Shown: positions 35,075 through 50,200 of the stretch, piece after piece
Layout of the letters: each line of letters begins with the position of its first letter
Position numbering within the stretch: position 1 is the stretch's first letter
NCBI GenBank assembly: GCA_963699545.1
Contig: CAVOUE010000003.1
Coordinates: forward strand, 384,001-448,000
Direction: 5' to 3'
Length of the DNA stretch: 64,000 bases
Source of the DNA: Nitrospirota bacterium
GTDB lineage: Bacteria > Nitrospirota > Thermodesulfovibrionia > Thermodesulfovibrionales > UBA9159
Position numbers and translations under genes: made by a program
Notes under the pieces: generated by a model
Database searches by the model: none
Seen by the model: the letters and a program-made list of their open reading frames with translations, nothing else
What the model was told of the DNA's origin: nothing

Positions 35075-36457
35075 GCTTAGAACTTCACCACCAACTACCA
35101 TCTCGCGAATCCTCAAGGTTGGCATTGCGTCTGATACCGGCACCCCCTGGGCGTCCTTTCCGCACGTACCGATGGAGAAACCCAGGTCCGAGGCTATCAG
35201 GTCAATGCATTAAGAACACAGGGTCCGTTGCCGGCGAGGTGGCTTCCCTACTGGTTCGCCGATGACGCCGTTATCTATCATGTACCCTTCCTGGACCTCA
35301 AAGACGAAATCTCCGGTGACGGTATTCACCTGTCCTCCCCCCATTCTTTTTACGAAGAGACCCTCCGGAGTGGATTTTACCACTTCATCGGAGGTGGTAT
35401 CTCCCGGTGCGATGAACGTGTTGGACATCCTTGGCAGAGGCCTATGCCGATAGGATTCGCGTCTCCCGTTCCCGGTGGATGCTACCCCATCCCTGGCAGC
35501 CGTAAACTTGTCATACATATAGCTGCTCAGTATGCCCCTGTCCACAAGAACGGTCCTCTGGGAGGGAGTACCTTCGTCGTCGAAACGGTAGGAGCCCCTC
35601 TTATGGGGGAGTGTTGCATCGTCTATGACCGTGACGAGTCTGGATGCCACCTCACGGCCTAATTGATGAGAGTACACCGACAGTCCGTACTGTGCAAGGT
35701 CTGCTTCAAGTCCGTGGCCGATTGCCTCATGGATCATGGTACCGCCGGCATCCGAAGATATGACCACAGGCATTCTGCCCCCCGGTGCCCTTCTGGCCCG
35801 AAGCATCATGAGCGCCCTGCGGGATGCCTTGAGGGAAAGTTCCTCCACCGATACACTGTCGAACAGCTCAAACCCGATGTGACCGCCGGCAGTTTCGTGC
35901 CCCGTCTGAATTACCCCGTTCTCCGATGCGATGACATGGACCATGGAAAGGGTATGGACGCGCTCATCCTCTGCAATAATTCCTTCTGAGGTAACGATGT
36001 AAACCCGCTGAATGAAGTCACGATAATGTGCCGATACCTGTTTGATGCGGCTGTCAGATGAACGGGCTGCACGGTCCGCCCTATGCACAAGATCGACCTT
36101 CGCCGCCATAGGTATGGTGTCCGGGAATTTTTCAATGACCAAGTCCGTCCCGGGCCTTGCCTTCCTGAGGTCAAACAGAGGGTTGGAAGGCCCCTTGACC
36201 GCTTTCCCGAGGGTCTCAGCAAGTTCCGTGAGGGATTCTTCAGATGCGTCATTGCAGAAGGCATAGGAACTCTTCCCTTCCCATATCAGTCTTATCCCGA
36301 CCCCGCTGTCCACCCCGGTCGAGACCTTCTCCACTTTTTTATCTTCCAGGTGAATGGACGTTGTCCTCTTCTGTTCAAGGAAGATATCGGCATATTCACC
36401 GCCACGGGACAACACCTTTTTCAATACGTTTCGGTACAGATCAGGATCGAGCACCAT
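35075..36457 (-). CDS. tldD: TldD/PmbA-family metalloprotease (frameshifts near 35210-35255; end approximate)
   Basis: HEAIGHGLEAD, DDEG, TGNGRRESY, PRMSNT; CGKDAQGVPVSD follows in another frame. Confidence 0.9.
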
Positions 36458-36610
36458 AAACCCTCTCTTCTTGGCTACTGGACTTCCGGGAGGTTTCTAT
36501 TATAGCATTATACCGATGCGGGAAGGAGCCGGTGAGGGAAGGGATTCAGACAATCAGGAGAAGGCATCTTTGTATCCCGGAATTCCTGAGCTTCAAGAAA
36601 GGGTGAGTCT

Positions 36611-37396
36611 ATGCCGAAAGTCGGAATGATTGCGGGAAGCGGTTTTCATGAGATTGAAGGGGTCGAAATCAAGGAGCTGAAAAAAGTGACGACTCCGTAT
36701 GGAGAACCCTCCGATTTGTACCGGCTTTGCGAGCTATCAGGGAGAGAAGTCGTTTTCTTGTCGCGCCACGGAACCCCTCACCATATCCCTCCGCACATGA
36801 TTAATTATCGGGCGAACATGTGGGGCTTCAGAGAACTTGGCGTAGAGCGTATCTTGTCGGTGAATGCGGTGGGAGGGATAAACCGGGAACTGGGACCGGG
36901 AGATATGGTGATACCGGACCAGATCATTGATGTGACTCACGGAAGGGCCTCGACATTTTTTGATCGCGATGAGGTGATTCACATAGATTTTACTCATCCT
37001 TTTTGCAGTGAGATCAGGGACTCTCTTATCACTGCCGGCAGGAAGTTGAAAATATCACGGGAAGAAGATGGTACCTACGTGTGCGTGAATGGACCTCGTC
37101 TCGAAAGCAAGGCAGAGATAGAACATTTCTCGTCCATGGGCGCCGATATCGTAGGCATGACCGTAATGCCTGAAGCCCCTCTGGCCAGGGAACTGGAGAT
37201 CTGCTTTGCCGGTATCGCTGTGGTCACGAACTATGCAGCGGGCATACATGATAAACGACTGACCACCGCTGAAGTTGTGGAAACCATGAAGACCTCTAAA
37301 GAACGACTCAAAGACCTCCTGACAGAGACACTCAAGCTTATTCCGGAAGTCAGGAAATGCAGCTGTCAACATGCGCTGAAAGACGCTCGGATGTAA
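36611..37396 (+). CDS. mtnP: 5'-methylthioadenosine/inosine phosphorylase
   Basis: TPYGEPS, RHG, NYRAN, GPRLES.AE, VGMT, VTNYAAG. Confidence 0.9.
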   Translation: MPKVGMIAGSGFHEIEGVEIKELKKVTTPYGEPSDLYRLCELSGREVVFLSRHGTPHHIPPHMINYRANMWGFRELGVERILSVNAVGGINRELGPGDMVIPDQIIDVTHGRASTFFDRDEVIHIDFTHPFCSEIRDSLITAGRKLKISREEDGTYVCVNGPRLESKAEIEHFSSMGADIVGMTVMPEAPLARELEICFAGIAVVTNYAAGIHDKRLTTAEVVETMKTSKERLKDLLTETLKLIPEVRKCSCQHALKDARM

Positions 37397-37543
37397 ATTG
37401 GCTGCTCCACTTTGTTCATAGATCATTTTTTTTATTCTCCCATCGATTCCCGCACTATGAAGCACATGTTCCCTCCTGAAAATCTTGCTTTTCTGAAACT
37501 TGTCATTTGCCATGGCTTACGAGCGGATATCAGCGGTTTCTTC

Positions 37544-37573
37544 TTGACATCGGTCCGACAAGCAAGGTATAAA
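37544..37573 (+). promoter_or_regulatory. Putative cassette-array promoter (Pc-like)
   Basis: TTGACA-N18-TATAAA pointing into the attI-like site. Confidence 0.5.
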
Positions 37574-37738
37574 AAGGGTGATTCTTCGAGGGGGGTCGTT
37601 TGTTAGACAGAAAACTCGATAACACCACAAAAGTAATATTAGCCGATCACGATAGCACGATAGAACAATCAGTTACGCCGGAAGTAATGTCTATGGTAGA
37701 TTGGGGAGACCGGAAAATTCCGGAGTTATCGAGAAACT

Positions 37739-37757
37739 ATCTAATAACTGGTTAGAC
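37739..37757 (+). other. Integron attI-like recombination site
   Basis: ATCTAAT-AACTG-GTTAGAC: L box, 5-bp spacer and GTTRRRY R box, the attI1 layout; 36 nt before first cassette ATG. Confidence 0.65.
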
Positions 37758-37793
37758 TACACTGAAGAATGATACTTACTAGAGGAACGTCCT

Positions 37794-38375
37794 ATGATAT
37801 ACCGACAAGATAACGAATTTGAAGACAAATCAATAGAGTTGAAAGATCCTATACGAACGCTCCTTCTGCGATGGAGGAGAAATTGCTTGCGCAGTCAAAT
37901 TGCTAATTATGATGCCGCAAACTGGTTTTCGAAAGCTAATTATTGGATTGGCATTCCAGCAACATTTCTTGCTGCGGGGGTTGCCACAAGCATGTTCGCA
38001 ACACTTCAGACTCAGCTTTCAACGTGGGCGAAGATAAGTTTTGGACTCCTAAGTGCTCTGGCGGCCCTACTTGCTGCGTTACAAACCTTTCTCCGATTAG
38101 AAGATCGTTCCAATAAACACCGAGCGTCCGCGGGCAAATATGGCAGTGTGAAACGTGAAATTGATTTATTGCTTGCTAAGACTCAATCAGATCAATCCAT
38201 TTCGGAAGTAGACGTAGAGTCAATTCGAAAGCGTATGGATTCCTTGGCGAAGGACGCTCCTGAAATGCCTGAACGTTTCTGGCAAGGCGTTCATCAAAAG
38301 GTACCACCCAGAGCAGAAGAAGACCATAGCCTTGCATCTCTAGCTGAGGATAATAAGTTAAAGGAACAGCCATGA
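37794..38375 (+). CDS. SLATT-family two-TM effector protein (cassette gene 1)
   Basis: ANYDAANWF..ANYWIGIP, two TM helices, LQTFL....RSNKHRASAGKYGSVKREI. Confidence 0.8.
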   Translation: MIYRQDNEFEDKSIELKDPIRTLLLRWRRNCLRSQIANYDAANWFSKANYWIGIPATFLAAGVATSMFATLQTQLSTWAKISFGLLSALAALLAALQTFLRLEDRSNKHRASAGKYGSVKREIDLLLAKTQSDQSISEVDVESIRKRMDSLAKDAPEMPERFWQGVHQKVPPRAEEDHSLASLAEDNKLKEQP

Positions 38376-39370
38376 TGACAAACGAGTATATTCCTGGACT
38401 CGGTCTAATTCCTAACGACGCTGGAATGTATGGAATTGAAAAGACATCCGATGGGCGCTTTAGAGCTGGTGAACATGGGGTCAGATTTATAATATCGACT
38501 GGTGATAGGAAGGTAGAGTTTGTGTCATTCAATACTCATACCCTTGCCTATGTAAAATCAGCAATGGGGTATCCGGCCTATTATCCCGTTCATGATGTCA
38601 AACTTGAGAAGCCAATCAGAGGTCTGCTGCTCGATCTCGATGGGACCATCATACGAAGCGAGAACTTTTGGATCTGGATTATCGAGAAGACCATCGCAAG
38701 TCTTCTTGAGGATCCAGACTTCAGACTCAAAAAAGACGACATAATCCATGTTTCAGGGCAAAGTGTATCAGAGCACCTTCAATACTGTATCACGGAATAT
38801 TGTCCAGAAAAGACTTTAGAAGACGCACGGAAATGGTATTTCAAACATACTCAATACGAAACGAGCGAAATCATAAAAGGACGTGGGGTAAAGGAGGCTT
38901 TTAAGCCTTCGCCGGGTATTAAAGATTTTCTACTTGCCCTAAGAGAGATGGGAGTAAAGATCGGCCTCGTTACTTCAGGGCTATATGAAAAGGCATGGCC
39001 TGAAATTATTTTTGCAGCACATAGTCTTAAGATAGAAAAGCCTCAGGATTTCTTTCATGTAATTATCACCGCAGGATTTCCACTCCGCAATGGGGCACCC
39101 GGAACCCTTGCCGAACTTCCGGCCAAGCCACATCCTTGGCTCTATGCGGAGGCAGCACGGATAGGTTTCGGCTTTCCGTTTGAAGAAAGACATCACGTCG
39201 TAGGCATTGAAGATAGCGGTGTAGGCATCTGTTCAATACGGCTTGCGGGCTTTTCCGCGATCGGTATTAGTGGCGGCAATATTGTTGACAGCGGCACTAA
39301 AGCGCTTTGTACAAATTATTGCGAGAGCTTTGAAGACATTCTTTTTGTTATAAGAAGGTATGTGATTTGA
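38372..39370 (+). CDS. HAD-family phosphatase with N-terminal extension (cassette gene 2)
   Basis: DLDGT, LVTSG, AKPHP, IEDS motifs; ATGA overlap with SLATT gene. Confidence 0.88.
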   Translation: MMTNEYIPGLGLIPNDAGMYGIEKTSDGRFRAGEHGVRFIISTGDRKVEFVSFNTHTLAYVKSAMGYPAYYPVHDVKLEKPIRGLLLDLDGTIIRSENFWIWIIEKTIASLLEDPDFRLKKDDIIHVSGQSVSEHLQYCITEYCPEKTLEDARKWYFKHTQYETSEIIKGRGVKEAFKPSPGIKDFLLALREMGVKIGLVTSGLYEKAWPEIIFAAHSLKIEKPQDFFHVIITAGFPLRNGAPGTLAELPAKPHPWLYAEAARIGFGFPFEERHHVVGIEDSGVGICSIRLAGFSAIGISGGNIVDSGTKALCTNYCESFEDILFVIRRYVI

Positions 39371-39495
39371 CAAATGAAAAGCTGTCGCACGGTAAGGGGT
39401 CTTGCATAGCATATTTCTGTCCTAATCTAGTACACGGAGTATGGGACGATGCCAATTTAAATAACTTATTAAACGATGGCGAATCGGCAAGAGAG

Positions 39496-39674
39496 CTCTA
39501 ACCAGGCGCACAAGCCGTCAAGCGGCTTAGCTTGTTGTTCCCATCCGGCGCTTCGCGCCGAACGGGAATGCGGCGGTAAGCGTCGACTGCCTGTCCTCGG
39601 CGCAAAGCGCCTGCGGGAACCAGGCAGTCAAGACGGACAAGCCCTTCGGGCGGCCGCTTACCGCCGCATTGGGC
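39496..39674 (+). repeat. attC-like composite palindrome
   Basis: Begins CTCTAAC and ends ATTGGGC; internal 16-bp perfect IR AATGCGGCGGTAAGCG/CGCTTACCGCCGCATT plus nested hairpins. Confidence 0.7.
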
Positions 39675-39709
39675 ACTAATATTAGTAAATAGAGATGGAG
39701 GGTAATAAA

Positions 39710-40852
39710 ATGGGAGCAAAAAAGAAAGACACGACTGAATCGGAAAGGACGAGTAACCAGAAACGTAGCTATTTGTCACAGACTGACGTGCCTGGCTTAT
39801 CCTTGGAACAAGCATTACGCGTGCCACGGGCTATCGCCGAAAACTATGCTGGAGGCCCCGTTACACCACTACAACTAGCCTCTGCGCTAAATATGACTCC
39901 GTCTTCTGGCCCCTTCAAAACTCTATGTGGTGCATCTATAGCCTACGGTTTAACTGAAGGCGGATACAATGCACAGTCAATAGCACTCACAACGCTTGGC
40001 AAGAGAATTGTAAAGCCTCTTGAGGAGAATGATGATACTGTGGCCAAACGTGAGGCAATACTAAAACCTCGTGTGCTGGGCGACTTTCTAAATAAGTACA
40101 ATGGATCTCCTCTTCCTAGACATGACATAGCAATGAATGTTCTCGAAGAAATGAAAGTGCCATCAGATAAAACGGAATCTGTTTATACCTTAATTTTAGA
40201 TAGCGCAAACTCGGTCGGACTTCTTCGTGAGATAAAAAACAAGCAGTATGTGGACCTGACAGGTGTCGATCAATCAACTGTTGTTGAGCAAGCAAGTAGC
40301 GAAACCGAAGAAGAAACAGTCAAAGGGGGAGATCGCGAACCGTCAATCGCACCAGCCTCAGCCGTTACCCAGGTAGCTTCAACACCGGGTAGTGCCTCCC
40401 GCAAGGTATTCATTACGCATGGAAAGAACAAGGAGTTCATCGAGCCAATAAAGAAGCTTCTTGGCTTCGGAGAATTAACACATATTGTATCTGTTGAGAA
40501 ACAGTCAGTTTCAAAGCCGGTTCCGGAAAAGGTTATGGATGATATGCGCAGTTGTGGAGCAGCCATCATACACGTTGAAGACGAAATGAAACTCATCGAT
40601 AAAGAAGCTAATGAGCATGTAATTATCAATCCTAACGTCCTTATTGAAATTGGCGCTGCCATGGCGCTCTATGGTCGGCGATTTATCTTGCTAGTTAAAG
40701 AAGGAGTCGAGCTTCCATCAAATCTGCAAGGATTGTACGAGGTCCGCTATAAAGGCGATATGCTAGACGGTGAAGCAACAATTAAGTTATTGGAAGCTAT
40801 TAATGACATCAAGAATAATCCGATCCCAGAACGGTACAAGAGTAATACCTGA
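39710..40852 (+). CDS. N-terminal wHTH-like domain fused to CAP12/Pycsar-type TIR domain (cassette)
   Basis: KVFITHGKN...CGAAIIHV...NPNVLIEIGAAMALYG...LPSNLQGL; bounded by TTGGGC and GCCCAAC. Confidence 0.82.
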   Translation: MGAKKKDTTESERTSNQKRSYLSQTDVPGLSLEQALRVPRAIAENYAGGPVTPLQLASALNMTPSSGPFKTLCGASIAYGLTEGGYNAQSIALTTLGKRIVKPLEENDDTVAKREAILKPRVLGDFLNKYNGSPLPRHDIAMNVLEEMKVPSDKTESVYTLILDSANSVGLLREIKNKQYVDLTGVDQSTVVEQASSETEEETVKGGDREPSIAPASAVTQVASTPGSASRKVFITHGKNKEFIEPIKKLLGFGELTHIVSVEKQSVSKPVPEKVMDDMRSCGAAIIHVEDEMKLIDKEANEHVIINPNVLIEIGAAMALYGRRFILLVKEGVELPSNLQGLYEVRYKGDMLDGEATIKLLEAINDIKNNPIPERYKSNT

Positions 40853-40887
40853 GACAGGCAAGACGGATTGAAAATATCTGCCCAACA

Positions 40888-41417
40888 CTTATAAGGCCCC
40901 CCGCTGTCAAGAGAAAAAGCGTTCCTAATCGGAAATCAGAATAAAGACATTTCCTTAATGTTCTTCAGATTGCCGGTGAGTTCCGACTTGGTTTCCGAAA
41001 GCGGCGTCAGATCAATATCTGCACCAAACACTTATCGAGGCTCGATAGCCGGTCAGCACGGAACAATGTATCAATTCCGTACTGCCGACGACAGTGGAGA
41101 GACCAATCGGTCTTGTTCTCCACGGCCTGGAAACAATTCAGAACCCTTATACCGTCCTCATCAAAGGTCTGGTTCATCCCGACTAATCGGGATCCTCCAG
41201 TTAGTATCAGGCTCGGGTAAGGGGCAGAACCTGTAACAATCTTTTATGTCTTATAGAGACCGGGCGTCCTAATCAAAAAAGATAGGCGCCGGGTATCGCA
41301 TTCCATGATGCCCTATCCATGATCGAAGCCATATACAAAGGCATGTTCTAAAGAGCATCCGTCGGACTTAACCCTAATGGCGCCAGTTAGACGCAACAGG
41401 CTCACCCGGTCCCAGCC
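40888..41417 (-). ncRNA. Candidate bridge/seek RNA region (about 530-nt non-coding end downstream of the transposase)
   Basis: Position typical of the IS1111 group; several stem-loops (41050-41088, 41094-41123, 41176-41193, 41260-41293); exact RNA bounds unknown. Confidence 0.6.
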
Positions 41418-42461
41418 TTATTTCGCAAAGAAGACTTCTGGATGAAACACCTCTTTTCTTTTCAGGATATGATAGGCAGCCCTCGCAAGCTTATGTGCCA
41501 AAATGGTCAGGGACTTCGCCTTGCCGTGCTTCCTTGCCAGTTTGTCCCGATACTTTACCGCTTCGGGGTTTCTCCTGAGGAAAAGAACGGCTGCTTCTGA
41601 GAAGGCCCATTTAAGATGTGCATTGCCGATCTTCTTGCCCGAGGTGCCGAGTTTCTTGCCTGCCGACTCCTTGGCGGATTTAACAAGTCTGCAGTATGAG
41701 ACGAAATCCTGCACTCTGGGGAAGCGGTCGATATCGTGAATCTCATAGAGAATGACCAGGCCGAGGATTCTTCCTATACCGGGTATGGAGCGAAGACGGA
41801 AATAGGAATCGGCATCATCGACCTTTGCGATAAGGGATATCTCATGTTCAACACGGTGAAGCAGTTGATCATAGTGGTCTATGAGGCCAAGATCCAGTTC
41901 GATGCTCTTTTGGACACTCATGTCGGTGAACCGTTCGGCCAAGCCTTCGCGGTTGCCTTTCTTTCCGATATTCTTCCCTATCTCCGGAAGGTTGTATTGA
42001 TGATTGGTGTTTTGCACATGGGCAAGGAGTTCGGCCCGCTTGCGGACAAGGTGCAACCTTCTTCTCAAGAGATCCCTCGTGGACCGCATTTCGGAAGGGT
42101 AGACATACGCCATAGGCATCATGCCGCCCCTTAGCAGCACCGCTATCTTATGAGCGTCTACCTTGTCGTTTTTGGCTTTGCCTCCGTGGATGGCTTTCAT
42201 GTACAGGGCATGGCCCAGGACAAACGGGATATTCTCCTTATTGCAGAGATCGGCGATCCAGTACCAGGTGAAGATGCATTCTACGGCCACGACAATGTCC
42301 TCACGATACGGCGCGATAGTCTTAAGGAAGATGTCGGGATTTGTTTTGATGTCCCGGTGCAGAACGATTCTTCCCTCCTGATTGAGGATGCAAAGGTACA
42401 TGGTCTTGGCATGCAGATCGATTCCGCAAGAAAATTTGTGCTGCTTGGTGTAAAATCTCAT
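41418..42461 (-). CDS. IS110-family DEDD recombinase/transposase
   Basis: GIDLH, AVEC, KNDKVDA (D-E-D-D); SIPGIG, ESAGK, GNAHLKWAF. Confidence 0.95.
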   Translation of the reverse strand: MRFYTKQHKFSCGIDLHAKTMYLCILNQEGRIVLHRDIKTNPDIFLKTIAPYREDIVVAVECIFTWYWIADLCNKENIPFVLGHALYMKAIHGGKAKNDKVDAHKIAVLLRGGMMPMAYVYPSEMRSTRDLLRRRLHLVRKRAELLAHVQNTNHQYNLPEIGKNIGKKGNREGLAERFTDMSVQKSIELDLGLIDHYDQLLHRVEHEISLIAKVDDADSYFRLRSIPGIGRILGLVILYEIHDIDRFPRVQDFVSYCRLVKSAKESAGKKLGTSGKKIGNAHLKWAFSEAAVLFLRRNPEAVKYRDKLARKHGKAKSLTILAHKLARAAYHILKRKEVFHPEVFFAK

Positions 42462-42687
42462 TTGAGGCCTCCTATGGGAAAAGGTTTTGGGTCCCTGAAT
42501 CATACCTGCTTCGGGTATGGTTCAGGGGGGCCTTAATGAGTATCAAATCTTTCCAGCCGACCGGTGATAAACCTAGTTGGTTTTAATAGGAAAACTAGGG
42601 ACACATCCCAGTTTTTCTTGACCACCGAGAAAAGCAAGCTTGCGATTCAATGTTTCTACTTGCCCGGCTTTCCTCTATTGCTAACGC

Positions 42688-42717
42688 TTGACAATAGTAA
42701 TGCCGCGAGTTACTATT
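42688..42717 (+). promoter_or_regulatory. higBA promoter with palindromic operator
   Basis: TTGACA-N17-TACTAT overlapped by AATAGTAA-N9-TTACTATT. Confidence 0.75.
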
Positions 42718-42721
42718 AATC

Positions 42722-43000
42722 ATGATTGTATCCTTCAAATGCCGGGATACGGAAGCCATGTTTACCGGCAAACGCATTGGGCGGTTCATCGGCATTGAGG
42801 CTGTCGCAATGCGGAAGCTCGCGTTGCTGAATGTTGCTGATAGGATAGAGGATCTGAGAGTGCCGCCTGGCAACAGACTCGAAGCTCTGAAGGGCAAACG
42901 TCAAGGGCAATGGAGCATTCGCATTAACGATCAGTGGCGGATTTGTTTTAGATTCAAGGGCGGAAGCGCCGTTGATGTGGAGATTGTTGATTACCATTGA
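42722..43000 (+). CDS. higB: HigB (RelE-family) toxin
   Basis: DLRVPPGNRLEALKG...QWSIRINDQWRICF...VEIVDYH. Confidence 0.93.
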   Translation: MIVSFKCRDTEAMFTGKRIGRFIGIEAVAMRKLALLNVADRIEDLRVPPGNRLEALKGKRQGQWSIRINDQWRICFRFKGGSAVDVEIVDYH

Positions 43001-43009
43001 GGAGGTTGC

Positions 43010-43312
43010 ATGAGAAAAAGACAGGTGCCTTATCCCACGCCGGGAGAGATACTGCTTGAAGAGTTCTTGGTACCGATGGGACTTACCCAGTATAGGCTTG
43101 CAAAAGAAATAGGCGTACCACAAAGGCGCATCGGGGAGATTATCAGCGGCAAAAGGGCAATCACCACGGACACAGGGCTTAGGCTGTCTCGGTTTTTCGG
43201 TCTGAGTGACGGATTTTGGGAGCGGTTGCAAATTGACCGCGATCTATCAGTTGCCAGGGACGAAATGGCCGATACACTTCTCAAAATTAAGCCATATAGT
43301 CACGCGCAATAG
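43010..43312 (+). CDS. higA: HigA antitoxin
   Basis: PGEILLEEFL...LTQYRLAK...RAITTDTGLRLSRFFG...FW. Confidence 0.93.
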   Translation: MRKRQVPYPTPGEILLEEFLVPMGLTQYRLAKEIGVPQRRIGEIISGKRAITTDTGLRLSRFFGLSDGFWERLQIDRDLSVARDEMADTLLKIKPYSHAQ

Positions 43313-43323
43313 AGCAGACGGGG

Positions 43324-44076
43324 TCAGGCGATCCTTGTCATGCCGATGGGATTCGGTGAGCGGCGCTTGTAGCCCCGGTCCTGCGCAAGGATGTCAAGGG
43401 GAAGGCTCATGATGTCCAGAAGATCGGCGGTGTACTCACTGAGAAGGCCCTCGTCCGCAGTCTTCAGATAGCTCTTACATTCATTGCAGAGGTCTATCCT
43501 GAACCCTTTTTCCTGTTCCACTTCGATGATCTCCAGTTTCCTCGCGTCCCTGTTCTGACAGTGAGGACATCCGACCCTGTGCCACGCGCCGCGGCTTGAA
43601 CAATAAGAACAGGAGAGAGCCTTTCCCTCTTCCCGCCTGAGGAACGAGAGGGAGGGGGCGGCATGACACACAGGACATCTTCCTTCTTCCCAGAACACGT
43701 CATGACCATTAAGGGAGCCTCTGAGCCGGAGGAAATACGGTCTGCTGATAAGGAAAAGAAGGCCCGTGAGTTCGTCCTCGTGATAGGGGAGGGAGAATGC
43801 AGGGGTTTCGTTAAGGGGCAGTCTGGAAAGATCCACCTGGCCCAACTTCATCGCTTCCTTAAGTGGAGCCAATATGTCCAGGGGTACTTCAAAGACGGAC
43901 GAAAAGGATTCAATAAGAAGATCGATGGACGACGGAGGATAGCATATATCTCCGGGAGAGGGAGCGACTGCATTCATCTTTCCCATTAACCGGTCAAACT
44001 CCGTGACCTTTTCATAAAGCCTGAGAGCATCCTTTAAATGAGGTCTTCGTTCAGCAATCTCTTTGATGGCAAACAT
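43324..44076 (-). CDS. fdhE: Formate dehydrogenase accessory protein FdhE
   Basis: CPVC, CSYC, CPHC, CNECKSYLK; LDILAQDRGY. Confidence 0.88.
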   Translation of the reverse strand: MFAIKEIAERRPHLKDALRLYEKVTEFDRLMGKMNAVAPSPGDICYPPSSIDLLIESFSSVFEVPLDILAPLKEAMKLGQVDLSRLPLNETPAFSLPYHEDELTGLLFLISRPYFLRLRGSLNGHDVFWEEGRCPVCHAAPSLSFLRREEGKALSCSYCSSRGAWHRVGCPHCQNRDARKLEIIEVEQEKGFRIDLCNECKSYLKTADEGLLSEYTADLLDIMSLPLDILAQDRGYKRRSPNPIGMTRIA

Positions 44077-44081
44077 AATGT

Positions 44082-45158
44082 TCAGGGTATTTCAGGGTAT
44101 TTCAACGACATTTCCTGACCGGCGAGTGCTTCGGTGAGAAATACCTTCAGAGAGTTCTTCTCCTCAGCAATGAGTCCCAAGGGTTTCAGCGCCTTGTTCC
44201 CCTTGCCGCCTCCTTCATTGAAGAATTCTATCACCTCATCCAGCGTCTTAAAGACGCCGTTATGCATATAGGGTGCGGTCTTTGGGATTTCCCTCAGCGT
44301 GGGCGTCCTGAATGCCTTCCAGTCTTTTCGGTCCTTGGTGATCAAATACCGGCCGGGATCTTCTGTCAGGTTCTTATAATCCTTATAATGGTAGACCTTT
44401 GCCACAAATCTCATCGTGGCCGTGACCCTTGGGTCATCCAGCAAAAGGGGGTTTTCAGGGACTTCCAGGGCATAAAACCTGTCATCAGAAAGATTAACAC
44501 CGTGATGACAGTCAGCGCATTTCCCTTTTCCCCTGAATATCTCGAGTCCCCTCTTCGCATCTTCGGACAATGCGCTCTTATCCCCTTTAAGGTACTTATC
44601 GAGAGGTGAGTTGAGGGAAATAAGGGTCCTCTCAAAGGCCGCAATCGCCATTGCGATCCTTTCCCGTGTAACAGCGCCGCCAAAGACCTTTTTGAACGCT
44701 TCGGCGTATTCCGGTACCACCCTGATCTGTTCCTCGAGATAATCGAGATTCTTGTTCATTTCGAATGCCGACATCATCGGGAAGAGCGCTTGATCTTCCA
44801 AGGTACTGACCCGGCCGTCATGAAACAGGAAGCGATAAAATGCGACGTTGATGAGCGTTGGGGAGTTTCTCCAGTTCTTTGTGGTGGGATAACTGAGGGA
44901 AATATCCTGGCCATCAGTGAACGCTATCTCAGGTATGTGGCAGGAGGCGCAGCTCATTGTGCCGTCACCTGAAAGGCGCCTGTCAAAAAAGAGCTTCTTG
45001 CCCAGTTCGATTTTCTCAGGTGTCTGAGGATTTTTCCCGGGAACGGGAACGGACTTGAAAGGTTCAAGATGTCCCGCGTATACGCCGGCCACGAAAACGA
45101 TTGTGAAAACCCATACAACAAGGGGGATGACAAAGAAAGCATATCTATTTTTTTGCAT
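44082..45158 (-). CDS. Di-haem cytochrome c peroxidase (bCcP/MauG family)
   Basis: LGKKLFFD.RLS, CASCH, RNSPT, CADCH, FRTPTLR, TAPYMHNG; N-terminal signal/TM segment. Confidence 0.92.
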   Translation of the reverse strand: MQKNRYAFFVIPLVVWVFTIVFVAGVYAGHLEPFKSVPVPGKNPQTPEKIELGKKLFFDRRLSGDGTMSCASCHIPEIAFTDGQDISLSYPTTKNWRNSPTLINVAFYRFLFHDGRVSTLEDQALFPMMSAFEMNKNLDYLEEQIRVVPEYAEAFKKVFGGAVTRERIAMAIAAFERTLISLNSPLDKYLKGDKSALSEDAKRGLEIFRGKGKCADCHHGVNLSDDRFYALEVPENPLLLDDPRVTATMRFVAKVYHYKDYKNLTEDPGRYLITKDRKDWKAFRTPTLREIPKTAPYMHNGVFKTLDEVIEFFNEGGGKGNKALKPLGLIAEEKNSLKVFLTEALAGQEMSLKYPEIP

Positions 45159-45735
45159 CTCTCAGCTCCTCGTCAATAACTTTCTTAAAAAAATCATAGG
45201 GCCTGTTCCCCGTAACCTTCCTCCCGTTTATGAAGAATGCGGGTGTCTCATAGAGGTCCATGGAAACCGCAAGTTGCTTGTCCCGCTCTATGATCCGCGC
45301 ATTTTTTTTCGTATCGAGTGATTCCGTGAATTTCTTCACGTCCAGCCCGAGCTCCTGTGCGTACTTGACAAGCTTGTCCTTGTCAAGTTGGGGAGATCTT
45401 TTCAATAAGAGCTGATGCATTTCCCAGAATTTTCCTTGGTCGCGGGCAGCGAGTGCCGCCTCGGCCGCTCCATGAGAGAAATCCCGGTACTTGTACGGGT
45501 TCATTTTCACCACAAGCCTAAGGTTTCCTTTGTAATCCTTGAGCAGTTTATCGACAGTCGGACCGACTCCCACGCAGTGGGGTCACTGGTAGTCGACAAA
45601 CTCAATCATCGTTACCCGAGCCGTGGCCTGACCGTACCCGGGCGAGTCTTCCAGAGGCACTTCGTACCTTTTATCCTGGGCAGAAGAAACGGATACCGCA
45701 AAGAACAGGGCAAGGAAAAGCAGCAGTCTTTTCAT
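45145..45735 (-). CDS. Exported DsbA/thioredoxin-fold selenoprotein (UxxC; TGA at 45583-45585 read as Sec)
   Basis: Signal peptide, then EFVDYQ-TGA-PHC in frame with downstream AAEAALAARDQGKFWEMH...ETPAFFING. Confidence 0.85.
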
Positions 45736-45847
45736 CGTCTTCCTTTCTCCAGTTAAATGATCCCCCCACATCACGTTCTCCGTCACGTGACATGGGGGGA
45801 TTAGTTCTATCCGAGATCGTTCTCTTTCCGGCTAAGAAGGGGCCGGC

Positions 45848-46466
45848 TCAGGATTTATGCGCGTGACCCTCCACTTCGGCTATCCATTTTGGATGCCTCT
45901 TTCTGGCCCAATTGTATGGAACGGTTCCGTATATCATTATCCTCAAGGTCCCGGGGTTTGCAAGCGACCCCAGGTAGATGTGGGCAGGTACCGCCATCAT
46001 CAGAACGACAAAACTGACATTGTGAATCAGGTGGGCGTACATCACCAGCTGTTTGTCTCCCGACATGAGCCAGAAGACGAAACCCGATGCCGAAATGCCG
46101 ATTCCGAAGACGAGAACGGCGAGATAAAAGAACTTCTGGCCCGTATTCAGCTTTCCCATAGGGGGCGTTTTTACCTTATGGGAGAGATAGCCGCCGGCCA
46201 CCGTTATCCATCTGATATCGTCAGCATCAAAGGTGAGAGACTCTTTAAGGTAAAAGAAAATGGTAAGGAAGAGGGAGACCGAGAAGGCGACACCGATATA
46301 GTTGTGCCACGTCCTCATCGAGTTGAAACCACCGAAAAATGATCCGATTCCCTCTATATGGAACAGGAACCCGTATCCCTGGACCGAGAGGACGATGCAG
46401 CTTATAGCCAGCACCCAATGGTTCACGATTTCGAACGCGTCTGGACTTTCTGATCATCTTATCCAT
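45848..46466 (-). CDS. fdnI: Formate dehydrogenase cytochrome b (gamma) subunit (5' frameshift)
   Basis: NHW, WHNYIG, GKLNTGQK, HNVS, HIYLG, WARKRHPKW. Confidence 0.88.
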
Positions 46467-47232
46467 TTTTCTTTTCCTCCTCTTCGGATTCTTTGTGAGG
46501 ACCGATGGCAACGTAATGGATATGGATGCAGCCGCTACGCCTCCGAGTCCTATGTAGGCGAGGGGCTTAAGGACCTTGTGCCAGAAGACAATCGACTTCG
46601 GGTATGGCCGGTTTTTCGTTCATCCCGTAGAGTTTCGGAGCATCCTTGAATGCATAGAGCGCACCGAGTCCACCGAGGTCCGACTGTCCGTAAAGCTTTG
46701 CATAGCCCACTTTCTGGGCCGAAGCTGATAAGATCCCGTCCCTGTCGCCGTATTTCAGAGCGCCCGTGGGACAGGTCTTTGTGCATGCGGGCTGAAGCCC
46801 ATTTGCGATCCTGTCAAAGCAGAGATGGCATTTCGATATCTTGTCTTTCTCATCGTAGCGCGGAACATTAAAGGGACATCCCGCAGACACAGAGCTTGCA
46901 TCCGATGCATTTGTCCTTATTGATCCCGACCGCACCTTCCTTTGTTCTGTACAGGGCCCCGGAGGACGGACAGATCTTCATGCAGCCCGCATCGTCGCAG
47001 TGCATGCAGCGCTGGTTCACGAAAGAGCCACCGCTCGACGTCTTTTGTCAGAGGGCACCTCAAGATAGTGGATCTTGTTGTAAAGATGCGGGGTGAGCTC
47101 GGGCGGATTTTCAAAGCCTCCCCTGTTGACTGTCTTGTCGCCAGGAAGCTGGTTCCATGACTTGCAGGCAACCTGACAGGCCCTGCATCCTATACACAAT
47201 TCCGGTGAAACGAGTATTCCCATTCTTGCCAT
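46459..47232 (-). CDS. fdnH: Formate dehydrogenase Fe-S (beta) subunit (frameshifted)
   Basis: CIGCRACQVACKSWN; CPFNVPRY; KCHLCFDRI..GLQPACTKTCPTGA. Confidence 0.9.
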
Positions 47233-47243
47233 AATATCACCCC

Positions 47244-50200
47244 CTATGCCTTTTCCACATTGACCATGAAGGCCTTTGATTCAGGTATGCTTGTGTTCGG
47301 ATCTCCGATGAACGGAGTCAAGAGATTGGCGCTGTCCCCGCCGCTTCCGTCCACCGGGAACTGCCAGCCGAAATGCCACGGCATACCGACCTGATGGATC
47401 GTCTGGTTCATGACCTTGAACGGTTTGAATCGGTCTGTGACCACTGCAACGGCCCAAAGGCTTCCACGGCCTGATGAGACCTTAACCTTGTCACCGTTCT
47501 TGATCCCCTTTTCAGCCGCGAGCTCCTTGCTCATCTCCACAAACATCTGTGGCTGCATCTCAAGAAGCCATGGAGTATGCCTCGTCATTACACCCGTCTG
47601 CCAGTGCTCCGTGACCCTATAGGTGGTGGCAACATACGGATAGCGCACATCACAACTAAAGTGGGAGGCCATTTGCGCCAGCGGAGTTGCCGTGGGATTT
47701 ATCCTTCGCTTTTTGGACATCGGGTTTTCCTGAATCGGGCATTCCAGCGGTTCGTAGTGCTCAGGAAATGGCCCGTCAGCAAGGCCCGGTCCGAAGATCG
47801 AAGCGATTCCATCCGGCTTCATGATGAAAGGCAGCTTTCCGCCCTTGTCGTCTGATAGTGGTGGAGCAGGACCATCCGGTATGTCACCTTCCCAGACACC
47901 TGGTTTATTTGTGGCAGGGTTCACCTTGGTGGGGTTCCATTTCAGGACAGCCCGCTTGGGATCCCAGGGATTTCCATTCGGGTCGACCGAGGCCCTGTTA
48001 TAGATGATCCTTCTGTTCAACGGCCAGGCCCATGCCCAGTTCGGGATAGAGCCCAAGGCCGGTAGGATCTTCCTTACCTCTTCTGGCCATCATGTTTATG
48101 ACCTTATCGTCTTTCTGGGTGTAGCTTCCGGAGTATAACCAGTTACCGCAAGAGGTCGTACCATCTGCCTGGAGGGTCACGAAATTTGTGACGAGTTGCC
48201 CTTTCTTTCCGATGAGCTTGGGCGGGTCAACCTTCTTGTCGTAGATATCTTCAAGATAGTATCCGTTGATCTCTTTTGCCACACGGTGGATATCGAAATG
48301 CTCTATCTTGCCGTCCTTGTTCTTTTCACCGTAATCCCAGGTCAGGTTAAGGATCGGCGCAGGGAACTTCCCTTTCTCTTTCTGGTAGAGCTTCTTCACC
48401 CTGTAGTACAGCTCGTTCATGATCTCCGAGTCTGGCATGGATTGTCCGATAGGCTTAATGGCCGCTGTCCTCCACTGGGCAAGGCGGCTGGAATTGCTGA
48501 TACTGCCCTCTTTTTCCACAGAGGAGCAGCAAGGGAGCATGAACACCTCTGTCTGGATATCCTCCGGTTTCATGTCAGGCCCTTTCCAGAAGGAGGCGGT
48601 CTCGTTGTCGTAAAGATTCACGTTAACGAGCCACTTCAGCTTTGAGAAAACCTGTCTGACCTTGCCCGCGGCAGCAGATGAACAGGCGGGGTTCTGCCCC
48701 CAGGCAAAGAAACCTTCAAACTTCCCCATGCCCATCTCAAGAAAGAGTCTGAGCCATGAGGCATTCATCCCCTCGTCAAGTTTGGGCAGCCAGGCATAAC
48801 CAAAATCATTGTCCTTGGTCGCCTTATCTCCATAAATCGCCTTGAGGTAGCTCGTGATGTATTTGGGTCTGTTCCCCCACCAGTTCACGCTCTTCGGCTC
48901 TTTTGTCTTGGGCGTGTACTTTTCGACGTAGGCCTTGAGGTCCACAAGCGAAGCAGTGGGCGTGGGGTTATACCCTGTAAGGATATGGAAGAGGAGGCCA
49001 TAGTCAGTCGAGCCCTGGACGTTTGATTCGCCCCTCATTGCATTTACTCCACCCCCTGCAATACCCATGTTGCCGAGCAGGAGCTGGACTATGCAGAAAG
49101 GCCCTGATATTCTGGACACCCACGGTATGCTGGGTCCATCCCATGGCATAGCACTCGGTTCCGGCCCTGTCACGCTTTCCTGTTGAAGCATAGGTCTTGT
49201 ATACCTCAATGAGCTTCTCCTTTGGTGTTCCGGTAATGCTGGAAACCATATCGGGCGTATAACGGGAAACGTGCTTCCTCAGGATCTGGTACACGCAGCG
49301 GGGGTCTTTCAGGGTCAGGTCTCTCTTAGGGAGACCCTTCTCGTCCATCTGGAATGTCCAGGTCTTCTTGTCGTACTTATTCGTCTTCTCATTAAATCCG
49401 GAAAAGACGCCGTCAAGCTCTCCCGGCATCTTGAAATCCGGATTCACCAGAAAGGAGGCGTTGGTATAGTTGACCACATAGTCTCTGAAGATGAGGTTAT
49501 TGTCGATAATGTATTTGATCATCCCGCTGATAAAGGCGATGTCTGTGCCCGAACGGAGAGGGGCATAGATATCAGCCTTTGCAGCGGTCTGTGTAAAGCG
49601 GGGATCTACGACGATGAGCTTTGCACCCTTCTCCTTCGCCTCGCATGATCCACTTCATGGATATGGGATGATTCGAGGCAGGGTTTGAACCCATGACGAG
49701 GATGACATCAGCGTTCCTGAGATCAACCCAGTGGTTTGTCATTGCACCGCGACCGAACGACTCTCCCAGAGCCGCTACAGTGGGCGAGTGTCATATTCGG
49801 GCCTGATGCTCTATATAGACCAGGCCCCAGGAGCGGAGCATCTTTTGCAGGACATAGCACTCTTCGTTATCCAGGGCAGCGCTTCCCACATGGGCAATGC
49901 CGTCGGTCCTGTTCACCACGAATTCCTTCTCGACATCGACCTCCACCTCAACGGGCAAGCCGCCTTCCTTCGTGCCCGGTTCAGTCTTCTTTTCCTTCAC
50001 TTTTGATTTGGCTTTTTCCTTGAACGTCCTGTCTCTCGTGTCCTTGATCTTTCGTGCAATCTGATCAAGGGCCCAGTCCCATTCGACCTCTTTCCACGCT
50101 GTTGCACCAGCGGCCCGATACAGTGGCCTTGTCACTCTCAGAGGATTGTTCACCATCTGGTAAAGTGATGCCCCTTTCGGACAAAGCGTCCCTTCACTGA

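Follow-up and report, generated by a model that had tools for sequence, protein, structure and literature searches.

What kind of mobile element has split an attC-like site in the window (the whole 64,000-nt stretch of contig CAVOUE010000003.1, assembly GCA_963699545.1, of a Nitrospirota bacterium), and how did it find this target? We consider it very probable that it is an intact insertion sequence (IS) of the IS110 family with IS1111-type architecture, that it belongs to the ISGsu4/ISMahy12 clade and that its insertion into the R'' box of attC sites is guided by RNA. The coordinates of its parts are collected in Table 1.

The ends of the element are defined by its junctions and by a second copy in the source genome. 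The left junction (40880-40902) reads GCCCAA-CA-CTTATAAGGCCCCCC and the right junction (42525-42562) reads GGGGGGCCTTAATGAGTAT-CA-AATCTTTCCAGCCGAC, exactly as a preliminary description of this locus had given them, and taking out 40888-42545 restores GCCCAACAAATCTTTCCAGCCGAC, the attC left arm that it had also predicted. The IS is 1,656 bp long without the flanking CA dinucleotides. The second copy (copy 2; G000:C6:403267-404929) is 100% identical to the window copy over 1,663 nt. This identity stops at AACA... and ...CAA, thus fixing the boundaries independently. Copy 2 is flanked as GCGCTTAA-CA-IS-CA-ATTAAATCCGCGGGACGGGCAATGGCCCGCCCGTGATTTAACGCGTTGGAC; relative to the RYYYAAC box the two copies point the same way, their flanks otherwise differ on both sides, and they lie within contigs of 903 kb and 470 kb. 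With CA at all four junctions of the two copies, the element has a short core and no long target duplication, as IS110 elements do. In transposase gene (tnp) orientation, the left end is ATACTCA followed by TTAAGGCCCCCC and the right end is GGGGGGCCTTAT followed by AAG. Asymmetric terminal extensions of 7 nt at the left and 3 nt at the right, together with subterminal inverted repeats, are described for IS1111-type IS in PMC11187229; here the repeats match at 11 of 12 positions, the extensions are 7 and 3 nt, and a long non-coding region lies downstream of tnp.

The sole long open reading frame (ORF) of the element (41418-42503, minus strand; 361 aa if the first ATG is used) is uninterrupted. 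Its product matches PF01548 (54.2 bits, cut-off 29), PF02371 (70.7 bits, cut-off 21.3) and the NCBIfam model NF033542, 'IS110 family RNA-guided transposase' (203.6 bits, cut-off 140). Aligned with IS621, D99/D102 and S266 correspond to D102/D105 and S241, given an assumed 2-residue offset in chain numbering; in the structure alignment KNDKVDA falls on the D102/D105 motif and KESAGK on the catalytic Ser motif. The N-terminal part of the IS621 alignment is unreliable, and the C-terminal domain alone aligns to the IS621 and ISCro4 structures (E 1.7e-8). Judged from these matches, the protein has the DEDD RuvC-like domain and the Tnp domain with catalytic Ser of the IS110 family; the earlier reading of intact DEDD and Ser residues without frameshift holds.

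Its place within the family is indicated by two motifs, GHALYMK and HLKWAFSEAA: of the ISfinder proteins printed in the PMC11187229 supplement, ISGsu4 and ISMahy12 alone contain them exactly. Sixty-eight of the first 100 residues are identical to ISGsu4, counted by eye. The identity matrix of PMC11187229 places ISMahy12 at 54% to ISGsu4, 63% to ISGsu5 and 70% to ISShfr7 and ISShwo5. By motif look-up and published identities, the transposase thus belongs with the ISGsu4/ISMahy12 clade, whose members ISGsu4, ISGsu5, ISMahy12, ISShfr7 and ISShwo5 are filed under IS110 in ISfinder; the window element is a distinct IS at about two-thirds identity. A full-length relation to the IS1111 transposase appears unlikely, as the clade stands at the far end of the published matrix.

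Relatives of this element are numerous. A scan of species-representative genomes yielded at least 608 confirmed relatives from many phyla, and the best 80 of these show 59-88% identity and come from metagenome-assembled genomes (MAGs) of many phyla. Among 84 fetched loci, a script located both ends in 45, giving complete elements of 1,559-2,218 bp, all of which share the end plan, including the subterminal inverted repeats. The preliminary description had suggested looking for further copies at RYYYAA^CA positions of attC sites; copy 2 and the 45 relatives pass this check, having the same ends and sitting at one and the same point, RYYYAA^C, of boxes that mostly belong to recognisable attC sites. 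Contigs of 90-99% relatives from four metagenome runs stop at 40884/5 and 42546/7, with the flanks ..GTCT/AACA, ..ACCT/AACA and CAA/TCACCAGCACCCGAC. The sequencing-run matches, 20 in number, are all assembled contigs sharing at most 0.21 of words, with no RNA dataset listed.

The insertion points of the relatives follow a common rule. In the 43 sites with enough flank, tallied in tnp orientation, the first base after the core is T in 43/43 and TT follows in 40/43 (..AAC on the window plus strand), while the base before the core is T in 38/43. The core is TG at the left junction in 39/43 and at the right junction in 34/43. The CA core proposed earlier stands for both copies and has to be narrowed across the relatives, where the second core base (G on the tnp strand, C on the plus strand) is constant at 43/43 left and 42/43 right junctions and the other base varies. 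In 9/43 sites the two core copies are unlike each other, and the difference is confined to the first base; unequal donor and target cores, with the heteroduplex resolved by replication, would give this outcome. Loci named for such a difference are L022, L025, L026, L028, L029, L046, L059, L071 and L088 (e.g. TG/GG, TG/AG, GG/TG), and one of these nine falls outside the 43 tallied sites; the core of L090 (TG/GT) also differs, probably from the script mis-setting the right end.

Joining of the two ends would create a promoter. On the tnp (minus) strand the joined ends read TTGACA-N18-GATACT, as had been predicted for circularisation, with the -10 made of the second core base and the first 5 nt of the left end. 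Its parts are conserved in 46/46 elements: the spacer between TTGAC(A/T/G) and the junction hexamer is 17-19 nt in all of them (18 in 34), the junction -10 is GATACT in 38/46 and TATACT in 1, and the left end begins with ATACT in 39/46. On the tnp strand of the integrated element no sigma-70-like site was found. A -35 from the right end with a -10 across the junction agrees with what has been reported of the junction promoters of ISEc11 and IS621 (PMC11187229; PMC11208158).

The next question is whether the target is indeed an attC. The restored left arm in the window, GCCCAAC-AAATC-TTTCCAGCCGAC, is an excellent R''-L'' match. When the 20,715 TGTT sites of the genome are scored with a weight matrix from the flanks of 44 other elements, the window left flank ranks first, far from what chance would give, and six sites score at least as high as the copy 2 flank. 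The restored site of copy 2 is a 59-nt canonical attC, GCTTAAC...GTTGGAC. It has the two single-base bulges typical of attC and folds at -15.2 kcal/mol when only the stretch from R box to R box is taken and at -16.5 kcal/mol over 60 nt. It comes after a BrnT/BrnA cassette, and 1 kb upstream the same strand holds an independent attC (36.7 bits). Among the relatives, strict TTRRRY is present in 18/43 sites, most others having common variants such as TTATGC; left-flank positions distant from the core are conserved too (A at -7 in 35/43, T at -10 in 34/43, T at -15 in 29/43). A strict single-hairpin-plus-GTT test is passed by 23/47 restored sites, 4/47 having too little flank.

An attC covariance model points in the same direction. 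It was built from 16 of the restored sites, with six bases across the element left out, and run on all 84 loci, where it gave 61 matches at E<=0.01; 61/61 are antisense to tnp. The 74 loci in which the left end could be recognised and 60 nt or more of flank were present counted as testable, and a match ending within 8 nt of the element was called adjacent. By this rule a match abuts the left end in 35/74 loci, and in 20/59 among loci outside training. Twenty-six further matches in 22 loci fail the adjacency rule, 23 or 24 of them clearly non-adjacent; therefore, many copies sit inside arrays. The matches near the left end in L066 and L040 may abut the element. In L066 the match ends 22 nt away because the adjoining attC arm is tandemly duplicated (GTCCGCTGCAGCGCTTTG twice; L066 1135-1216). 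Considering that the preliminary description had spoken of an integron attC, the attC part is supported and the integron part is not: the window site is a left arm only, and no integron integrase (IntI) above cut-off was found in the 87%-complete genome (best TIGR02249 match 70.8 bits, cut-off 265).

The 3' non-coding region of the element is the presumed bridge or seek RNA. Its length is 384-1,089 nt in 46 elements, and it is conserved in blocks across 40 relatives. The 446 nt that were folded reach a minimum free energy of -170.4 kcal/mol, compared with -134.7+/-6.4 kcal/mol for 100 shuffles (z -5.6), and RNAalifold on 37 sequences returned 29 pairs, 20 of them with compensatory changes. Two homologous modules stand out. 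Both are internal loops with a GAGCC-N-CUAAC-UGG 5' strand and a UUUGAUUAGGAC-like 3' strand, closed by covarying stems; in the outer stem of module 1, each of 10 pairs is changed on both sides in 5-15 of the 37 sequences, and a long-range stem encloses module 2 and the downstream multiloop.

The 5' strand of module 1 carries the candidate target guide GCGUCUAAC, which makes 7/9 pairs with the window target and 8/9 with the copy 2 target, the latter counted by hand. Over 35 elements, guides pair with their own targets at a mean of 7.03/9, versus 6.59+/-0.13 for permuted targets (p=0.001). The claim of an RNA-guided kind of element is thus backed by a guide-like segment that is complementary to the target and covaries with it. 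Indeed, lineage switches match: guide GCACAAC with target GCACAAC in L016, CGAAAC with CCGGAAC in L051 and L053, and UAUAAC with CTATAAC in L063, while L058 pairs 9/9. At the three positions that face degenerate R/Y bases, the guide has U in 32/35, U in 20 or C in 15, and G in 29 or U in 5 (34/35). We infer that one guide could accept many attC variants by wobble, because U or G stands opposite the degenerate positions. On the 3' strand of module 1, U-UG is all that could match the other target strand; it is followed by AU, the first two left-end bases.

A donor guide may be located in the multiloop, where CCUCGAUAAG-UG-UUUGG (41029-41040 and beyond) copies the right end, the core and the first target bases. 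The fourth-from-last base of this donor segment equals the second-last right-end base in 29/37 elements (mutual information 1.05 bits); in the scan of all positions against all, no other non-trivial signal was as strong. This placement agrees with PMC11208160, which notes a donor-matching segment in the multiloop for many IS1111 orthologues, and the guide order agrees with PMC11187229, in which IS1111-type seekRNAs carry the top-strand complement first. The extra bases after each core look, by analogy, like mirrored forms of the handshake guides of IS621 (PMC11208158). Exact k-mers that the non-coding region shares with target and donor were many, short and ambiguous; one of them, TGATACT in loop 2, matches the core and left end in this lineage and is not conserved in relatives. 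A resemblance of the loop-2 3' strand to a left-end complement was rejected as a left-end guide, because relatives do not share it.

Table 1. Features of the insertion element and of its target site (window positions; + and - are strands of the window)
Feature	Position	Strand	Remarks
R'' box of target attC, GCCCAAC	40880..40886	+	last C is the first core base
Core dinucleotide CA, tnp-distal end	40886..40887	.	sole bases common to both junctions of both copies
Presumed bridge/seek RNA, 3' non-coding region, 530 nt	40888..41417	-	folding, conserved blocks, compensatory pairs
Right-end terminal extension, 3 nt, AAG on tnp strand	40888..40890	-	
Subterminal inverted repeat, right end, GGGGGGCCTTAT on tnp strand	40891..40902	.	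11/12 complementary to 42525-42536
-35 hexamer TTGACA	40905..40910	-	completed as promoter only on end joining; TTGAC(A/T/G) in 46/46 elements
Donor-guide candidate CCUCGAUAAGUG	41029..41040	-	identical to right-end terminus and core; then UU(UGG) like right target flank
Loop module 2, homologous to module 1	41144..41224	-	GAGCC-N-CUAAC-UGG ... UUUGAUGAGGAC
Loop module 1, target-binding-loop-like	41256..41413	-	outer stem 41403-41413/41256-41265; 5' strand 41383-41402; 3' strand 41266-41285
Candidate target guide GCGUCUAAC	41386..41394	-	complementary to tnp-strand target G-TTRRRYNN (R'' box)
Transposase/recombinase gene, 347 aa	41418..42461	-	uninterrupted ORF, ATG behind GGAGG
Subterminal inverted repeat, left end	42525..42536	.	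partner of 40891-40902
Left-end terminal extension, 7 nt, ATACTCA on tnp strand	42537..42543	-	gives 5/6 bases of junction -10
Core dinucleotide CA, tnp-proximal end	42544..42545	.	sole bases common to both junctions of both copies
Rest of attC left arm, spacer AATC and L''-like TTTCCAGCCGAC	42546..42561	+	rank 1/20,715; no matching right arm

We propose the following cycle. Excision would join the two ends into a circle, and the junction would build a sigma-70 promoter with its -35 from the right end and its -10 from the core G and left-end ATACT, which could then drive tnp and the 530-nt 3' region. The RNA is predicted to fold into two homologous internal loops and a multiloop. In loop 1, the 5' strand GCGUCUAAC would pair with tnp-strand G-TTRRRYNN, that is, the second core base and the R'' box, and the 3' strand (..UUUG-AU) would match T-TG of the other target strand. 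At the same time, the segment AUAAG-UG-UU, which matches the right end, the core and the first target bases, would hold the donor. The DEDD/Ser recombinase may then exchange strands at the 2-nt core. Insertion would always be antisense to the cassettes and would split R'' from the remainder of the attC.

Several observations weigh against this proposal. At the window copy, no pairable attC right arm was detected after the element, leaving the left arm only, and the attC covariance model run over the window gave nothing significant (best 11 bits, E 0.29, at 39620-39676). About six complete relatives (L034, L042, L071, L075, L084, L090) lie in sequence unlike attC. With regard to the RNA, the covariation signal of target and guide comes from few lineages, no guide for the donor left end was found in the non-coding region, the mutual-information scan gave no RNA column that tracks the left target flank beyond T-TG, and Rfam had no match over 36000-48000 at E up to 1. 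Neither a circle junction of right and left ends nor an empty site was present in the assembled contigs, which could hardly show them. Finally, since the assembly is of metagenome type, the identity of the two copies could owe something to a repeat having been assembled as a consensus.

It is conceivable that the element recognises attC in its single-stranded, folded hairpin form, or through contacts of protein with DNA at the inverted repeats and L'' box, and that the RNA complementarity is a by-product of conserved sequence. The attC-type positions kept in the left flank far from the core, with which no RNA segment covaries, would suit this explanation, and according to PMC11187229 end recognition in IS1111-type IS may differ from that in IS110. 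However, the hairpin is unnecessary, because the window copy inserted where no pairable right arm exists, and in L016, L051/L053 and L063 a changed guide goes with a changed R'' box. The conserved L'' positions are expected anyway if most guide-matching RYYYAAC boxes lie in attC sites, and PMC11187229 reports experiments showing RNA dependence for two other attC-targeting IS, ISKpn4 and ISPst6. We therefore regard recognition without RNA as improbable.

The second alternative is that the element is dead, or merely an assembled repeat, without present mobility. Nothing dynamic was observed, and the assembly is 87% complete, in 13 contigs, with 5% contamination. However, the two copies have different flanks on both sides and zero differences over 1,663 nt, and the ORF, the ends, the promoter halves and the RNA stems are intact, so that we give this alternative a slim chance. 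The presence of two identical copies at different sites, together with the open frame and the intact ends, argues for recent movement, and the element is probably active. The circle, the transcript and its processing, pairing in vivo and current activity are all deduced from sequence, from which RNA guidance and activity nevertheless appear well supported.

To our knowledge, attC-hunting IS are known from one clade, mainly from Pseudomonas and clinical class 1 integrons. This IS1111-attC group (ISPst6, ISPa21, ISKpn4) was reportedly described by Tetu and Holmes in 2008 and by Post and Hall in 2009. The window element shares with it the attC target near the 5' end, the antisense orientation to the cassettes (61/61 attC matches antisense to tnp), the subterminal inverted repeats and a 3' non-coding RNA (predicted here) with the top-strand complement first. 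It differs in the lineage of its transposase (the published matrix puts the two clades at about 17% identity) and in the non-coding region, which in the window clade is longer than the published seekRNAs of the group and has two homologous loops; PMC11187229 gives peak seekRNAs of 82-86 nt within long forms of 148-151 nt. By motif look-up, published matrix and plasmid search, an indirect comparison, the element appears to fall outside the monophyletic ISPst6/ISPa21 clade. Thus, the earlier assignment to the IS1111 type holds for the architecture, namely the ends and the 3' region, and fails for the transposase, which goes with ISGsu4/ISMahy12 instead.

The plasmid search (tblastn, 72,556 plasmids) returned 380 records. 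The best match is on a Candidatus Manganitrophus plasmid (68% identity), followed by Pseudoalteromonas, Alteromonas, Catenovulum and Vibrio campbellii at 51-55%; the remaining listed records reach at most about 40% over the whole match, with a few short partial matches at 42-51%. Plasmid matches H16, H79 and H80, inspected for ISKpn4 and ISPa21, all lie outside integrons and so gave no reference copy. That the element is merely a member of the described IS1111-attC group, with which it has in common the kind of target, the placement near the attC 5' end antisense to cassettes (PMC3001079), the IS1111-type ends and the 3' non-coding region, is hardly credible, for the ISKpn4 and ISPa25 proteins in the PMC11187229 supplement have none of the window-protein motifs, the exact motifs are confined to ISGsu4/ISMahy12, ISShfr7 (70% to ISMahy12) has 16.8-17.5% identity to ISPst6/ISKpn4/ISPa21 in the matrix of that source, and more than 50% identity in plasmids occurs only in environmental and marine records, Klebsiella/Enterobacter matches reaching 27.5% over 44% of the query.

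The ISGsu4-like element can further be compared with two other systems. With IS621 and ISCro4 (PDB 8WT6, 9T56) it shares the DEDD RuvC-like domain and the Tnp domain with catalytic Ser, a 2-nt core with one invariant base, a two-loop guide RNA (predicted here) and a promoter that would be rebuilt at the circle junction. Unlike them, it has the RNA 3' of the gene, reversed guide order, long inverted repeats and a donor segment in the multiloop. Group IIC-attC introns are likewise mobile elements that home to attC, entering its 5' part in the direction opposite to cassette transcription (PMC3001079); in contrast to the window element, they are retrohoming ribozymes with a reverse transcriptase rather than a recombinase, and there is no sequence relation.

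The surroundings are best described as a small attC cluster that has partly decayed and has no integrase nearby. Two attC-like relics lie at 39487-39676, between a HAD-type gene and a TIR-domain gene: one is CTCTAAC..GTTGTTC, about 55 nt long, and the other an imperfect palindrome of about 125 nt, GCCGAAC...ATTGGGC, of which the attC model scores only the 39620-39676 part. The upstream genes (37794-40852) look defence-like and cassette-like, comprising an SLATT_4-like two-transmembrane protein (26 bits, cut-off 27, which it narrowly misses), a HAD hydrolase and a protein of 385 aa in which an unassigned N-terminal half precedes a C-terminal CAP12/Pycsar-type TIR domain (64.5 bits). Directly downstream of the interrupted attC is a pair of a HigB-like toxin and a helix-turn-helix antitoxin (HigA) at 42722-43312; no attC follows it, and the next gene, FdhE-like (43324-44076), converges on the pair. 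The simple pattern RYYYAACAAWT has 19 scattered matches across the genome and forms no array.

Elsewhere in the genome, the best IntI candidate, on contig C5, was rejected as a split XerC-like gene beside hslV. At this locus (L004, G000:C5:303641-306838) the xerC-like tyrosine recombinase gene is split into overlapping ORFs of 186 and 119 aa, pointing to a frameshift or to an error of assembly. About 4 kb from it there is an unoccupied attC (41.8 bits, C5:300989-301075). Among the relatives, L041 and L042 are two related copies about 3.8 kb apart on one Acidimicrobiia MAG contig (17046-24458), at different target sites. L012 is carried by the conjugative Vibrio campbellii plasmid NC_022271.1, beside a second, different IS110-family transposase gene, in sequence that presumably resembles Vibrio VCR-type attC.

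Elements of this kind have been described before; the novelty lies in the lineage and how abundant it is, in the long RNA with two loops and in the apparently wobble-tolerant reading of a consensus box. A full-text literature search gave no target statement for ISGsu4-type entries and no link to attC, and an earlier mention is possible. More tentatively, the ISGsu4-like elements, with at least 608 loci, may be a second, phylogenetically independent and widespread lineage of bridge-RNA IS specialised on integron attC, which would read the degenerate GTTRRRY through a wobble guide and carry an unusually long 3' RNA with two loops and a multiloop donor guide.

An attC-targeting life-style is met here in an IS110 branch that is unrelated to the known clade and abundant in environmental MAGs of Nitrospirota, Desulfobacterota, Planctomycetota and marine Gammaproteobacteria. 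It makes three questions testable: how a bridge or seek RNA is tuned to a degenerate consensus instead of a single sequence, whether G·U wobble widens the target range, and to what extent such elements immobilise cassettes where integrons are sedentary or attC clusters lack an integrase. Genome engineering gains from it a natural recombinase whose donor is defined, with a candidate target guide of 9 nt and many covarying relatives. If the tentative reading of a specialised lineage is true, ISGsu4-like elements would show how a programmable recombinase can be deliberately promiscuous in nature, and they would have a major and so far overlooked influence on environmental integrons and attC clusters, disabling attC sites and fixing cassettes in place.

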